From NCBI GenBank assembly GCA_963514005.1, contig OY740805.1, positions 24,428,001 to 24,492,000 of the forward strand: a stretch of 64,000 bases of DNA, given 5' to 3'. Below the pieces are notes generated by a model. The model saw only the letters and a list, made by a program, of their open reading frames with translations, did not search any database and was not told where the DNA came from. Below are positions 45,710 to 61,125 of the stretch, one piece after another. The position numbers and the translations under genes were made by a program. Each line of letters begins with the position of its first letter. Position 1 is the first letter of the stretch. This DNA is from Raja brachyura. Its lineage: Eukaryota.

Positions 45710-45770
45710 ATGAAGACCTTCAGCTGCTCTATCCTCTGCCTTCTGCAACTTCTCAGCAACAGAATTTCAG
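45710..45770 (+). CDS. CD2/SLAM/CEACAM-like IgSF receptor (copy C), coding exon 1: signal peptide
   Basis: ATG in context ACAATG, MKTFSCSILCLLQLLSNRIS+G, phase-1 donor CAG|GTAAAA joining in frame to the IgV exon. Confidence 0.8.
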
Positions 45771-47189
45771 GTAAAACTATTTCTGTGTCTCTGTAAGCAG
45801 GCGGTGACTGCAATCCGGCTCAAGACTGTTCAAGTTGGGGGAAGAAAAGAAAATGCATTCGTAGAAATATAATTCTAAACTGAACAGTAGAGCATAGGAA
45901 CAGGTCCTTGATATTAGGACCTGATCTCTGTGTCAAAAATGATCCCAAATTAAATTAATCCTTTGTGAAACTTCCCCCATCTGAAACTTCACACTCAGTC
46001 CTCTACGATACGATAAGATACGATAGAACTCTATTTATCCCCTCGCATTAACACTTTCCGAAACAAACTAGGGACAATTTACATTTATACCTATACAATT
46101 AACCCACAAACATGTACGTATTTTGAGTGTAAGGGGAAATTGATGATCTTGGAGAAAACCCACGGGGAATGTACAAGCCCCGTACAGACTGCATCCATAT
46201 TCAGGATCGTTCCCCGGTCTCTGGCGCTGTGAGGCAGCCAATCTACCACTGTGCCACTGTGTTGCCCTTTACACCCAGGAAGACGAAGTTTCAACCATTT
46301 CCACTTCAGCACCATTGATTAGTAAAGTAAGCTCACACATGTCATGACACCTCTGAGATAGCAATGATGAATCTGCCAGAAGTAGTTTGTTGATTAATAG
46401 CTTCTTTATTGTAGAAATGCAGAACAATGAAATAACTCTTAACTTCCGTTCTTCATCGTCGTCCCAATCATGCTGGTGGTTCATGATGATAATGTGTCGT
46501 AGACATGGTAGAAAACTGTATCATCTCCTGGCTCTGACATCAAAACTGAAACCAATGTATCTGAGCGTCTGCGCTAGACTCTTCTGGCTAAAAACACTCC
46601 CAGCCTACTTAAATAACTCCACCCACATTAACACAGGCAGATAACTATGAAAGGTAACTAGACATGTGGCTATAATAAACTTACTTAAGCTAAATGGCTC
46701 CTACATACCGGTCCCTAACTGTTTTGAGTATATAATGAAGCAATTACTAATAGACATTAAAAAAGGAGCAATAAAAGCTTAACATACATCAAAAACAAAA
46801 ATAACATGCATTATATATCAGCTTTCAAACTTCTTTAGCGATTCTTCTATCTTCACCTTCGCCTTCAAGAAGCAGACATATCTTGGTTATCGGTCTCACC
46901 AAGATATTATTCTTAGTCTGAAGTCGTACTATACGCACCAAAGCTTTAACGTCAGGCATGATATCCAGTATAGAGTCCAAAACTCTGAAGTCCAAAGTTT
47001 TGACAGCATGAAACTTCTTCCTCGATATCCGATCAGTTCATGGATACGTTGTGGTAATGTTGAAATATGATAATCCTTCAAGAGCTTAGCCTCTTCAGGC
47101 ATTGCCAGTCTATTCAGGCATCCGCTAACTCACAGAAGTCCTTCTAATACCAGATCCACTTTATACAATTGACTGTCTCTTTTGACACC

Positions 47190-47585
47190 ATGTTCTCCAT
47201 CTTCTACTCAGCTACACTTGTCACTTTACGTCCCCCCTTGACTCCATTCAAGGACCCAAGCAGTCTTACCAGGTGCGGCAGAGATTCACTTGCAACTCCT
47301 CCAACCTCATCTAATGCATCCGCCGCTCTAGATGTCAGTTGCTCTACATCGGTGAGACCAAGCGTAGGCTTGGCGATCGCTTCGCTGAACACCGCCGCCC
47401 GGTTCGCAATAACCAACCTGATCTCCCAGTGGCACAGCACTTCAACTCCCCCTCCCATTCCGAATCCGACCTTTCTGTCCTCGGCCTCCTCCATGACCAG
47501 AGTGAGGACCTCCAGAAATTGGAGGAGTAGCACCTCATATTTCGCTTGGGCAGTTTGCACCCCACCGGTATGAACATTGACATCT
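47190..47585 (+). mobile_element. Penelope-like GIY-YIG fragment nested in the BEL element
   Basis: LYIGETKRRLGDRFAEH..PVAQHFNSPSHS. Confidence 0.8.
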
Positions 47586-48709
47586 GACGGCCTGTTTCTG
47601 TGCTGTAATTGTTATATGGTTATAATTCATAATATCCATGAACTTTAACTCTTCTCTGGACATTTCTTCTGATTCCTTCTTGGTACTGTCATTGAAGTCG
47701 TGGTTGTATTGCTTGATCATCAGCTCTTCTAATTTATCAGTAGATATTTGATTGGCAGCAGCAGCATGGTGGTTCCTCTGGTTCCTGCTTCCGTGGTTCC
47801 TTCTCAAGGAGCCATAGTAGGGTCCTCACAGCAAAGTAGATCCGAGTAGGGTCCTCGCAGCGAATGGCCTGTCCCCTTGACTGCTGACGATCTCTTTAGG
47901 TTCCAAAGCATTTGTTCCAATTAGTAAGTCGAAACCAGAATTTATTTTAGGTAACGTGACATCCTTCAAGTATGGCCATTGTTTCAACTCTTCTTGCTTG
48001 GGTATATTTTGATGACAAACAGGCATGGTCTCGTGTAAACACCTCAGATATTGGTATTAAATTGTCTTCATCCAGACTAGATATTTCCATACTTGTAATG
48101 TGATGACTAACGCACTCTCTCTCTCTTCATTCATGGTACGCATTAAAATCGTAACCTTTTCTCCTGTAATGCCCAGCCTTCTCATCAACCTTTCTATACA
48201 AAAGGCAGTTGATCTACCATGATCCAACATTGTATATGTTTGCAACACTGTTTTCCCCTGGCTGCTCCTTACCTGTACTGATAAGATGGAGAAAGTGCAG
48301 GTTTCTACCCCGGCCCAAATACGCGCATTTATCTGAGGTGAGGTAACAGCATCACTAGTAGCTGGCTTCTCCTTCTGTTCAATTTGCTCCGGCTTCCTTT
48401 GTGTCTTCTTCTGTTTAGTGTGAAGTAATCCAGGATGATCCTGTTTACACTTATCGTAAGTTATAGGATTATTGCAGTCCTTAACTATATGTCCTTTCTT
48501 CAAACATCCAAAGCAGATTCCCTTCTCCTTTAAGAAGTTCATCTTTTCTTTATATGCCTTCTCCTTTAATCTTCGACATCACCTTATGGTGTGACCAACC
48601 TCATCACATAACAAACAAAATCCCTTTTGCTTGATAGTAGATATATCTCCTTTCATTCCTCCTGTCGTTTCCATAGGTATTATAGTGGTAGCAAAACTGC
48701 ATTCCTTAA

Positions 48710-49242
48710 GGGCCTGTGACCTAATCCATGAGTTCTGGTGAGTTTGCCCTCGACTCATACTCGCAGCATGGTCGACACGAGGTCGTAGGAGGTCTTTGTA
48801 ACTCTCCTTCATGCTCGAGTGTGGTCTCCGCGTACTCAAGGCCTCAGCTAGGTCGCGGCGTGTTTTTCAATATTTTTAAAAAATGCCCGCGAGTTAAAAA
48901 AAGGTCGCCATGGAAAAAAATCGATACTTTTTTTACTCGTAGGTTTAGTAGTAGTAGGTTGGCATGTTAGTCGTAGGTAATCTAAGGTAGTCGTAGATAG
49001 TCTTCATCATAGTCGAAGGGAGGTCGAAGGAGATCGAATGAGGTCGTCTTCACTCTCCATTATTCGGTGTCCAATTTCTCCGAAGTTAGTCGTATCTAGT
49101 TGTAGATAGTCGAAGCTGGTCCTCAACATAGTCAAAGGAGTTCGAAGGAGGTCTTCCACATAGTCGAAGGAGGTCTTCAACATGTCATTTTTTTCAAACT
49201 CTCCTAAACTCGCCAATTAGGTCACCCAAGTGGGACAGCCCC
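48710..49242. mobile_element. MITE (PIF/Harbinger- or Kolobok-like) nested in BEL gag
   Basis: Ends GGGCCTGT... / ...GTGGGACAGCCCC flanked by TTAA/TAA; internal short GTCGAAGG/TAGTCG repeats; interrupts the gag reading frame. Confidence 0.55.
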
Positions 49243-59059: not shown

Positions 59060-60290
59060 TGCCGAACACCTTTTTTCCCTTAGTCCCACCTGCCTGCACT
59101 CATACCATAACCCTCCATACCCTTCTCATCCATATGCCTATCCAATTTATTTTTAAATGATACCAATGAACCTGCCGCCACCACTTCCACTGGAAGCTCA
59201 TTCCACACCGCCACCACTCTCTGAGTAAAGAAGTTCCCCCTCATGTTACCCCTAAACCTCTGTCCCTTAATTCTAAAGTCATGTCCTCTTGTTTGAATCT
59301 TCCCTATTCTCAAAGGGAAAAGCTTGTCCACATTAACTCTGTCTATCCCTCTCATCATTTTAAAGACCTCTATCAAGTCCCCCCCTTAACCTTCTGCGCT
59401 CCAGAGAATAAAGACCTAACTTATTCAACCTATCTCTGTAACTTAGCTGTTGAAACCCAGGCAACATTCTAGTAAATCTCCTCTGTACCCTCTCTATTTT
59501 GTTGACATCCTTCCTATAATTGGGCGACCAAAATTGTACACCATACTCCAGATTTGGTCTCACCAATGCCTTGTACAATTTTAACATTGCATCCCAGCTT
59601 CTATACTCAATGCTCAGATTTATAAAGGCTAGCATACCAAAAGCTTTCTTTACCACCCTATCTATATGAGATTCCACCTTCAAGGAACTATGCTCGGTTA
59701 TTCCCAGATCCCTCTGTTCAACTGTATTCTTCAATTCCCTACCGTTTACCATGTACGTCCTATTTTCCTATTAAAATTTCCCCTTTAAATGTCCTCCATT
59801 TCTCCTCTACATCTTTCCCATAAAACAAAATGTCCCAGTTCACTCCTTTTAAATCATCTCGCATCTCGTTAAAGTTAGCCTTTCTCCAATCAAAAATCTC
59901 AACCCTAGGCCCAGTTCTGTCCTTCTCCATAATTATATTGAAACCAATGGTATTGTGATCACTGGACCCGAAGTGCTCCCCTACGCATACCTCCGCCATA
60001 CACCCAGCACCCTTTATGTGAAAAAGTTACCACTCAGATTCCTCTTAAATCTTTTCTCCTTCACTTTAAAACTGTGTCCTCTGGTCCTCGATTCACTTAC
60101 TCTGGGCAAGAGTATTCTTCTCAAGATTTTTTCACCTCTATAAGATCACCCTTCATCCTCCTGCTCTCCAAAGAACAGAAACCCAGCCTACTCACCCTCT
60201 CCCTGTAGCTCAGACCCTCTACCCCTGTCAACATCCATGTAAATCTTCTCTGTGTCCTTTCCAACTTGACAACATCTTTCCTATAATTCA
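59060..60290 (-). mobile_element. CR1-type LINE fragments
   Basis: ORFs 59080..59376, 59360..59752, 59760..59999 (GSSDHN) and 60121..60303. Confidence 0.85.
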
Positions 60291-60519
60291 CATGATCTCT
60301 CATTCCGTTTTCCCTGTGTGGATAAATATCTCTCCAGACGTGATGTAGGAATTTTTTTTAATTATAAGGAAGGTAAATAGTCTTTAATCTGTTTAACCCA
60401 ATCGTGGGGAAGCAAGATAAGAACAATTTGCCAGCAAGGCGGCATGGAAGCGCAGCGGTAGAGTTGCAACCTTCCAGCGCTAGAGACCCAGGTTTTCCGC
60501 AAGTCTCGGATTGTCCACG

Positions 60520-60825
60520 TTTGGTTTAGTTTAGTTAGATTTAGAGATACAGCGTGGAAACAGGCCCTTCTGCCCACCGAGTCCGCACCGACCAGCGATC
60601 CCCGCATATTAACACTATCCTACACACACTAGGGACAATTTACACTAGCACTAAGCCAATTAACCTACATATCTGTACGCCTTTGGGTTGTGGGAGGAAA
60701 CTGAAGATCTCGGAGAAAACCCACGCAGGTCACGGCAAGAGCGAATAAACTCCATATAGACAGCACCCGTAGTCAGGATCGAATCCGGGTCTCCGACGCT
60801 GCAAGGCAGCAACTCTACCGCTATC
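60520..60825 (-). mobile_element. V-SINE (HE1-like)
   Basis: Head AGCGGTAGAGTTGCTGCC..GGATTCGATCC, V-domain and (AAACT)n tail on the minus strand. Confidence 0.7.
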
Positions 60826-61027
60826 GAGGAGAAGTCTGCTGTGTGATTACCGATTGTACACCACAATCAAACAACTTCATTCTACCTAGATACGTGACAA
60901 TAAAATATCACTGAATCATTGCATTGAATCAAAAACATGATAAATACAAAGGGAAGTCTTCTCTGCATCATGGACATTTAAATTGAAATCTACAATAGGT
61001 AACCAAAGGTGATTTATTTTGTTCTAG

Positions 61028-61125
61028 GTCATGAACTCAATCCCAGAGCTCGGGATGGTTTGTACCCGGCCATTATCTTAGTGATCGCAGCGGTTCTCGT
61101 GTTTAGCGCTGTTGGTCCATGGTGA
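61028..61125 (+). CDS. Copy C coding exon 4: stalk plus hydrophobic transmembrane or GPI-signal-like segment
   Basis: TTTATTTTGTTCTAG acceptor; the phase-1 frame gives GHELNPRARDGLYPAIILVIAAVLVFSAVGPW*; a donor TG|GTGAGT at 61121/61122 overlaps the TGA. Confidence 0.75.

Follow-up and report, generated by a model that had tools for sequence, protein, structure and literature searches.

A spliced two-domain immunoglobulin-type gene in the MHC of the skate Raja brachyura, encoding a probable, possibly GPI-anchored ligand from a copy that may be decaying

Within a stretch of 64,000 nucleotides from the genome of the skate Raja brachyura (hereafter the window), an earlier note had recognized four exons hidden among repeats and had read them as a CD2/SLAM/CEACAM-like receptor gene. 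The locus raises the question of whether these exons form a genuine gene, to which family they belong and how their product might act at the cell surface. Copy C, as we call this locus, is a genuine spliced skate gene encoding a two-domain immunoglobulin-type surface protein. All exon coordinates proposed earlier were confirmed, with canonical AG/GT sites (Table 1), and the exon lengths of 61, 300 and 270 nt yield phase-1 junctions and a single open frame. The spliced product counts 242 aa, instead of the approximately 241 first estimated, and consists of a leader, a cysteine-free IgV, an IgC2 and a hydrophobic end. As had been noticed, the V domain lacks the B- and F-strand cysteines; indeed it contains no Cys at all, and it bears a single N-glycan sequon (N82). 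The C2 domain displays the canonical C143–C192 pair, an unpartnered C130 and four sequons, and its NQVS motif, taken earlier as NPVS-like, reads NPVS in several shark orthologs. In Pfam, the C2 exon matched Ig_3 with an E value of 3e-12 and the V exon matched V-set with an E value of 7e-4, below the curated cut-off. An AG lies immediately 5' of the ATG, and several shark orthologs carry N-terminal extensions. A non-coding exon upstream of the leader exon is possible.

Table 1. Features of copy C and its paralogs in the window (positions numbered from its first nucleotide)
Feature	Position	Strand	Remarks
Exon 1, leader (signal peptide)	45710..45770	+	61 nt, phase-1 donor, GT after 45770
Exon 2, IgV without cysteines	52455..52754	+	300 nt; AG before 52455, GT after 52754
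Exon 3, IgC2, CEACAM-A-like sequence	57585..57854	+	270 nt; AG before 57585, GT after 57854
Exon 4, membrane anchor, read through to TGA	61028..61125	+	AG before 61028
Low-copy upstream segment common to copies A and D (84-91%)	44821..45616	+	Candidate promoter/first-exon region, inferred
2-nt deletion site	61108..61109	+	Relative to copies A, D and contigs of runs X1, X14, X15
Breakpoint within repeat, where homology with copy A stops	61940..61960	+	Downstream tail exons of A/D absent from copy C
First AATAAA 3' of stop, 941 nt downstream	62066..62071	+	Candidate poly(A) signal, inferred
Paralog B (pseudogene), leader exon	17734..17794	-	Sequence match
Paralog B, IgV exon, frameshifted by 2-nt gap	15025..15322	-	Sequence match
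Paralog A, leader exon	1475..1535	-	Sequence match

Intron-free contigs, from runs that are only presumed to be RNA, joined V to C2 from 52753 to 57584 as aligned (X8 record 24, X14 record 11) and C2 to exon 4 at 61027 as aligned (X1 record 1, X14 record 4). Leader and V appeared in the same phase in Logan-derived proteins on contigs of 929-1445 nt, and none of the matches listed for the V exon came from recorded RNA. The junctions that the earlier note had proposed to check in reads are thus borne out in close relatives at the predicted sites for V-C2 and C2-exon 4, whereas the leader-V junction is backed through the Logan-derived proteins.

The stop codon of copy C (TGA, 61123-61125) overlaps a GTGAGT donor starting at 61122 that is used by the relatives, an overlap that had previously been missed. 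This TGA is in frame only because 2 nt are missing and the last exon, kept by the paralogous copies A and D, has been lost. A contig of run X17 spans the deletion site with 0 differences and 0 gaps. The contigs of run X1, the sole ones resembling a copy C transcript, carry the 2 nt and are spliced at the donor, and the 242-aa read-through form was not observed as RNA. When the tail exons of A and D were searched by blastn over 464 kb, only those of A and D were recovered. Two candidate tails were discarded: the start of the next exon in X1 is present only behind copy A, and the 52-nt exon of X14 turned out to be a dispersed low-copy element. The hydrophobic C-terminal segment described earlier does exist (a 19-mer, residues 221-240, mean KD 2.51, ending 2-3 residues before the stop), but its endpoint is the product of the 2-nt deletion and the lost last exon.

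Copy C is one of four paralogs (A-D) within an inverted duplication that spans 450 kb or more and abuts BRD2-B2M-class I in the MHC, and this four-paralog arrangement is what is new here. The V, C2, anchor and tail exons of copy A lie to the left of the window, from C25:24,415,329 to about 24,398,990, and no C2 or anchor exon was found for copy B. The idea of copy B as the mirror sister of C was unsupported (V identity of 89.3% for C-B against 92.6% for A-B). The C2 of copy C is 98% identical to those of A and D and its V 92-93%; the low C2 dS among the copies (0.016), set against flanks that are 91.5-94% identical, suggests gene conversion. Variation in V among the skate copies is highest in the C' strand. 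In the V of copy C dN stays below dS (0.058/0.119 against A and 0.063/0.156 against D), though not significantly. Pairwise counts gave no sign of positive selection on V, the dN/dS ratio being about 0.4-0.5 (Fisher p 0.06-0.29) with no dN excess.

Copy C is MHC-linked, being physically linked to B2M, a BET-domain gene and class I. The leader of copy C lies at C25:24,473,710, at 314 kb from a B2M exon (C25:24,159,708) and 269 kb from an exon of the BET-domain gene (C25:24,204,881), named BRD2 by position only. Class I exons occur at 24.05 and 23.96 Mb of C25, including an alpha-1 exon 418 kb from copy C. Examination of the flanking genes, as suggested earlier, therefore gave an MHC address. The SLAM locus, in turn, is linked to NCSTN/KCNJ markers, and in this genome NCSTN (18.9 Mb), KCNJ (19.2 Mb) and a CD48-like V (19.57 Mb) are found on C24, whereas copy C lies on C25, where searches for KCNJ and VANGL gave no match. 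CEACAM-like C2 exons occur on C51. The CEACAM synteny markers given in the available text of one source are TOMM40/APOE/LIPE/ATP1A3/XRCC1 (PMC3628338); HSL_N/LIPE, the one marker searched, had no match anywhere. A 'slamf' gene has been drawn in the white shark MHC by Verissimo et al. 2023 (PMC10751288), likewise a SLAM-like gene on an elasmobranch MHC chromosome; in the available part of that source, whose text mentions it once, in the legend of Fig. 2, it adjoins WDR46 at the chromosome end. Sawfish genes matching the family by name lie mid-chromosome, as far as the accessible record goes, in an IgSF cluster that bears no label and has NOTCH4/PBX2 on one side and SYNGAP1/CUTA on the other.

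The gene had been considered lineage-specific, a view that did not hold, since its orthologs are spread across 21 species of sharks and rays, 20 of them named by profile search in addition to Heptranchias. In that search, which answered one of the checks proposed earlier, 31 of the 32 matches were elasmobranch members of the copy C family with E values of 3e-43 or better, and the first match outside the family was a goby HEPACAM (E 8e-12, 31% identity). The shark and ray relatives in RefSeq, with 55-87% identity to copy C over V, bear inconsistent automatic names assigned by best match: XP_032903599 'A33-like', XP_051899578 'CEACAM2-like', XP_078272495 'CD48-like' and XP_041068028 'CEACAM1-like' are all orthologs or close paralogs of copy C, which has its own frameshifted end. 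A literature search, in which subscription journals were thinly covered, found the family described in no paper; skate CEACAM ESTs do exist according to the accessible parts of two reports (PMC3628338, PMC4079198).

Among the 21 orthologs, 17 have no cysteine in V and four have one, whereas a fourth C2 cysteine (at 205) occurs in five, with a spacing unlike that of the SLAM-locus protein P0222. Within V, column entropy reaches its minimum in the E and F strands (0.64-0.75) and its maximum in C'-C'' (1.4-2.0). The tail is dispensable, given that C-termini are short and unrelated across species, that a second, independent frameshifted end occurs in the Amblyraja RefSeq models P0007 and P0217, and that P0187 and P0188 are exon-4-skipped forms. 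A tyrosine motif was found in just one of the 29 C-termini examined and none is conserved; hence, although the architecture of CD2/SLAM/CEACAM/HEPACAM type in a cartilaginous fish stands as proposed, the word 'receptor' was an overstatement.

Members of the CD2/SLAM family combine an N-terminal IgV devoid of the B-F disulfide with a membrane-proximal C2 bearing two disulfides, and SLAM receptors possess an ITSM-bearing tail that the ligands CD48 and CD58 lack. Copy C shares the disulfide-free V but not the two-disulfide C2 (three Cys, versus four in P0222), has no tail in which an ITSM could reside, and is not located at the NCSTN/KCNJ-linked SLAM locus. It likewise shows the CEACAM hallmark of a disulfide-free N domain followed by an A/B-type C2, and no CEACAM-type founder bearing ITIM/ITSM or ITAM was found among the 29 C-termini. 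The two domains point in different directions: V scored 33 bits with the SLAM-locus V, 23 with shark CEACAM N and 20 with HEPACAM, while C2 scored 51-68 with CEACAM, 44 with HEPACAM and 24 with P0222. The best single-domain PDB match of C2 was the CEA A domain (40.7 bits), and the family C2 profile reached 67-68 bits with a shark CEACAM5-like protein; CD48 V was among the few PDB sequence matches of both the V exon and the family profile.

The predicted V model (pLDDT 90.5) gave TM scores of 0.83/0.86 (2ptv) and 0.86/0.71 (2edo) with CD48 and of 0.77/0.80 with CD58. As modelled, the V fold appears tied among nectin-1 (Z 15.7, rmsd 1.9, 96 aligned), JAML (14.8, 1.7, 96), CD48 (14.5, 2.0, 93) and CD58 (14.3, 1.7, 92), the latter two within about 1.5 Z of nectin-1. 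For the two-domain model 2dru ranked first, near-tied with CEACAM1, and in a structure atlas SLAM or Ly9 names appeared on five of the eight clusters among the matches listed. A library-wide profile search was dominated by multi-Ig proteins and gave few informative rows. The phylogeny advised earlier was run on 21 V rows, excluding mouse CEACAM, and on 24 C2 rows; within the family the trees follow species order, but they do not settle the forks between families.

HEPACAM is marked by strong conservation among vertebrates and by a long cytoplasmic tail, hallmarks that copy C does not share, and the goby protein is only 31% identical. With CD48/CD58, copy C has in common the disulfide-free V plus C2, the short hydrophobic end and the lack of a signalling motif, but it resides in the MHC whereas the SLAM locus is NCSTN-linked on C24. 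With CEACAM1-related and GPI-linked CEACAMs (CEACAM5-8, pig CEACAM60) it shares the disulfide-free N and A-like C2 and, as the available text of two studies describes for the GPI-linked members, an anchor exon shortened by deletion or stop (PMC2832619, PMC13212111); in contrast with CEACAMs, its V is nearer to SLAM-locus V, it has no ITIM/ITAM member and it is flanked by B2M and BRD2. The best reading is that the copy C family represents a branch of CD2/SLAM/CEACAM-type proteins that is linked to the MHC and has so far gone undescribed.

On balance, we consider it somewhat probable that this spliced MHC gene, with its leader, IgV, IgC2 and tail-less hydrophobic end, encodes a CD48/CD58-type adhesion or costimulatory ligand, for which a GPI anchor is the most likely prediction. 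The leader would route the protein into the ER, and C2, with its heavy glycosylation, might act as a spacer. V could use its GFCC'C'' face to bind a partner on another cell; its conserved F-FG-G strands would grip a host partner, while specificity would be tuned by the variable C'-C'' edge. Since copy C has no ITSM, ITIM or ITAM, any signal would run through the partner. CD48 is GPI-linked and CD58 has GPI and TM forms; proteins of this class have a hydrophobic C-terminal signal with an omega site, at which they are cleaved, and are released by PI-PLC. In copy C, translation would run on through exon 4 as far as the TGA and the transcript would stop at the AATAAA at 62066. The protein would then finish on a hydrophobic signal with no tail after it, the route by which primate CEACAMs acquired GPI linkage. 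If copy C is expressed, our own predicted split assigns about an even chance to GPI anchoring, a slightly smaller one to a tail-less membrane span and a small one to an unstable product. The carpet-shark orthologs P0021 and P0023 have a clean membrane span and a basic tail, an argument for TM anchoring, and the likely omega region (presumably G211-H-E) fits GPI preferences poorly. The creation of a GPI signal by deletion and stop has a precedent in CEACAMs, as reported in the portions available of PMC2832619 and PMC13212111.

Copy C could instead be a decaying duplicate, 3'-truncated and frameshifted and heading to the state of copy B, with function residing in A and D, a reading that we regard as rather unlikely. 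In this assembly it has suffered the 2-nt deletion and lost all downstream exons, decay does occur within this cluster, as copy B is already a pseudogene, and run X1 has an intact spliced C-type copy, so that the lesion would be recent or polymorphic. Against decay, the reading frames of leader, V and C2 are unbroken, as are the three splice junctions in use, dN is below dS in V, the stop would fall in a last exon followed by the AATAAA, and the Amblyraja paralog models have a comparable frameshifted end.

It seems less likely still that the family comprises CEACAM-like homophilic epithelial adhesion proteins and pathogen targets, whose tail-less copies would be sheddable decoys homogenized by conversion between inverted copies. 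Decoy and conversion models exist for CEACAMs, at least in the available text of PMC2832619 and PMC13278318, and the CEA/CEACAM A-like C2, the inverted arrangement, the apparent conversion and the peak of variation in the C' strand are consistent with them. However, conversion homogenized C2 and not the binding V, whereas a decoy would require the opposite. Moreover, neither 664 kb of sequence nor the 29 C-termini yielded an ITIM-bearing partner sharing this V, and V shows no dN excess. Very improbable is a diverged HEPACAM, or a named SLAM/CD2 ortholog, relocated to the MHC chromosome. RefSeq labels many of its models HEPACAM-like or CD48-like, and the goby HEPACAM is the first match beyond the family, but that match follows a gap in E from 3e-43 to 8e-12, HEPACAM scores remain low for both domains, a separate CD48-like gene sits beside NCSTN and KCNJ on C24, and sister V-C2 families lie on the same chromosomes as the copy C family in three sharks. 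On the best reading, copy C encodes a tail-less and possibly GPI-anchored ligand, and this copy may be decaying.

In itself, a two-domain Ig protein is nothing unusual for a skate, and its relatives had already been modelled by RefSeq. The weight of this MHC-linked branch lies in its address and range, one ortholog group in sharks and rays that here stands beside B2M-BRD2-class I and apart from the NCSTN-linked SLAM locus. The cluster, moreover, combines nearly identical ectodomains with tails that are long, short or missing, so that a membrane-anchoring switch becomes testable. An unlikely but bolder reading holds that the family is the missing MHC-chromosome ohnolog of the CD2/CD58, SLAM and CEACAM clusters, kept only in sharks and rays with an ancestral CD48-like V and CEACAM-like C2, copy C being a recent TM-to-GPI switch that arose independently, in the manner of the primate and pig CEACAMs. 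Were the family such a sister, on the MHC side, to the CD2/SLAM and CEACAM clusters, the ancestral MHC would have included a ligand for costimulation or adhesion, and the idea of a primordial immune complex could be tested directly.

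The four exons proposed in the earlier note, with AG/GT ends and phase-1 junctions, were confirmed for copy C and splice into a single open frame, the product being 242 amino acids long instead of the approximately 241 claimed. The protein carries cysteines at positions 6, 10, 130, 143 and 192 and five N-glycan sequons. Its second exon matched the Pfam V-set at an E value of 7e-4, under the cut-off, and its third matched Ig_3 at 3e-12. AlphaFold predicted a V-type sandwich for the V exon (pLDDT 90.5). For P0012, a relative from Amblyraja, the model of both domains reached a pLDDT of 75.9. 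Within the IgC2 exon, C130 has no partner, and a counterpart cysteine occurs at position 205 in 5 of 21 orthologs, so a disulfide-linked dimer could be conceived.

Six of 22 candidate sequencing runs were compared with the window, none of the 22 being recorded as RNA. As proposed for the V–C2 junction, X8 record 24 and X14 record 11 run directly from 52753 to 57584 without an intron, and the X14 contig resumes at 61027, in agreement with the C2–exon 4 junction. Both records differ from the window at 26–30 sites in V, and hence derive from a relative or a paralog. In X1 record 1, a C2 end of copy-C type is joined to exon 4 with one difference in 84 nt; leader and V appear in the same phase in Logan proteins, from contigs of 929–1445 nt.

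All four copies found lie inside one inverted segmental duplication, which spans 450 kb or more on C25, the skate contig that carries the window and the MHC, and runs from 24,234,923 to 24,684,865 or beyond. The arms of the duplication align in 74 blocks that total 95 kb, at a mean identity of 91.9%, around an axis near window 32,000–47,000, competing axis bands aligning at most 19 kb each.

Copies of the V-C2 gene in the inverted duplication (window coordinates)
Copy	Coordinates	Strand	State
A		minus	complete
B	leader 17734-17794; frameshifted V 15025-15322	minus	pseudogene; no C2 or anchor exon found
C	leader 45710-45770; IgV 52455-52754; IgC2 57585-57854; exon 4 (hydrophobic anchor) 61028-61125	plus	gene under study
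D		plus	complete

Copy C diverges from A and D by 7–8% in V and by less than 2% in C2. The C2 dS of 0.016, set against flanks that are 91.5–94% identical, suggests from sequence comparison gene conversion of C2 among the copies; in the V of copy C, dN was below dS, not significantly. A second IgV family linked to the MHC carries a cysteine-rich insert, has weak pIgR/CEACAM matches and Atlas clusters without names, and occurs at L037:7801-8178, in seven further copies at C25:24.27-25.17 Mb and in a distant copy at 28.62 Mb. Since no strong donor directly follows its V and no C2 exon was found nearby, its members are probably secreted single-V proteins, candidate partners of the copy C family or a separate matter.

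The C-terminus of copy C is a copy-specific lesion. Its TGA stop straddles a GTGAGT donor at 61122. Relative to copy C, paralogs A and D have two extra nucleotides at 61108, also carried by the X1, X14 and X15 contigs, and those of X1 and X14 are spliced onward from this donor. An X17 contig (61070-61151) is identical to the window, with neither differences nor gaps across the 2-nt deletion, which is therefore not confined to the assembly, although X17 may represent the assembly's source sample. A and D each possess a tail exon, encoding 45 and 8 residues respectively; none was found for copy C across the 464 kb searched. Homology between C and A ends near 61,950, and the earliest AATAAA beyond the stop lies at 62066.

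In the skate, B2M is a C1-set exon at C25:24,159,708 (best matches E 5e-26), with class I exons at 23.96, 24.05 and 18.1-22.9 Mb. A BET-domain exon at 24,204,881, 30 kb from the start of the duplication, was named BRD2 by position, because brd2 is reported to adjoin b2m (PMC10751288). Among the class I exons, at least three ABC-membrane genes at 21.87-22.06 Mb are probably duplicated TAP genes. C25 also carries related V and C2 exons at 27.5, 27.6, 28.75 and 42.9-43.1 Mb (L006, L051, L054, L055, L057); those at 42.9-43.1 Mb may be the counterpart of the white shark 'slamf'.

The family profile matched 32 of 6317 candidate proteins. Sharks and rays supply 31 of these, all with E values of 3e-43 or better, from 20 named species and one Logan cluster; the remaining match is a goby HEPACAM (E 8e-12). 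Heptranchias adds a 21st species. Because the search requires shared words, the apparent absence from chimaeras and bony fish carries little weight. MHC linkage in other species is circumstantial: in the sawfish, the proteins share their names with two rows of MHC chromosome 34, at 9.75 and 9.89 Mb (B2M at 13.08 Mb), within an IgSF cluster adjoining NOTCH4/PBX2; the contig of the white shark protein (115.85 Mb) is consistent with chromosome 19; and family accessions fall within about 1,200 (white shark) and 700 (catshark) numbers of their own b2m. In humans, the region near NOTCH2 that holds CD2/CD58 is MHC-paralogous. Stingray and sawshark orthologs (P0001-P0004) contain tandem V or V-C2 units with two or three V domains, resembling the domain repeats of Ly9 and multi-N CEACAMs.

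On another contig (C24:18.9-19.6 Mb, L007), a CD48-like V exon is grouped with NCSTN and a KCNJ gene, so that the classical SLAM locus of the skate is there, unlike copy C on C25. Sister V-C2 proteins of the same shark chromosomes scored 38-61 bits with the V profile and 86-100 bits with the C2 profile, above the SLAM, CEACAM and HEPACAM comparators. The V profile gave 33 bits with P0222, the protein of the SLAM locus, 23 with shark CEACAM and 20 with HEPACAM; the C2 profile gave 67-68 with shark CEACAM, 51 with mouse CEACAM, 44 with HEPACAM and 24 with P0222. CEACAM-like C2 exons are located on C51. Structure searches placed CD48 and CD58 near the top, with nectin-1 and JAML close by; Atlas neighbours were mostly SLAM-named; trees gave no decision on family affiliation. 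From model and sequence scores, copy C probably works like a CD48/CD58-type protein, but its C2 lacks the pair of disulfides, and its position the locus, expected of CD2/SLAM. We file the family as neither CEACAM nor HEPACAM.

On balance we lean towards a functional tail-less ligand. Across 29 C-termini, 0 to 70 unrelated residues follow the hydrophobic exon, and one contains a tyrosine motif; the family would thus be a ligand without signalling of its own. In rays and lamniform sharks, polar residues interrupt the hydrophobic segment and the chain stops 2-5 residues after it; in carpet sharks a basic tail follows a clean span. One Amblyraja paralog shows a separate frameshifted end, and exon-4-skipped forms occur among the models. 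The conserved E and F strands and FG-G region, with a variable C'-C'' edge, fit a conserved host partner. Decay of copy C is a distinctly weaker prospect; a CEACAM-like decoy is unlikely, and a known ortholog moved to a new place very improbable. Read-through of copy C would leave a terminal hydrophobic segment with no residues behind it; against a GPI route count the lack of read-through RNA among contigs of the six compared runs, an omega region that looks poor by GPI rules, and the decay of nearby copy B. The shortened end might nonetheless be comparable in origin to the GPI-linked CEACAMs of primates and pigs, which arose by TM-exon deletions or stops according to PMC2832619 and PMC13212111.

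RefSeq models of the family exist under many names. For the white shark MHC, one 'slamf' appears in a figure legend, with a supplement row adjoining WDR46 (PMC10751288), probably a different gene. In the parts available, skate CEACAM is claimed from ESTs (PMC3628338, PMC4079198, PMC13278318), shark Cd2 and Slamf6 are named as markers (PMC10529500), and PMC12227049 holds no CD2, SLAM or CEACAM term. We found no description of the family in a literature in which subscription journals were thinly covered. Copy C is a real gene of known architecture, its loss of the tail is its own, and its family is apparently an MHC-linked elasmobranch family new to the literature.
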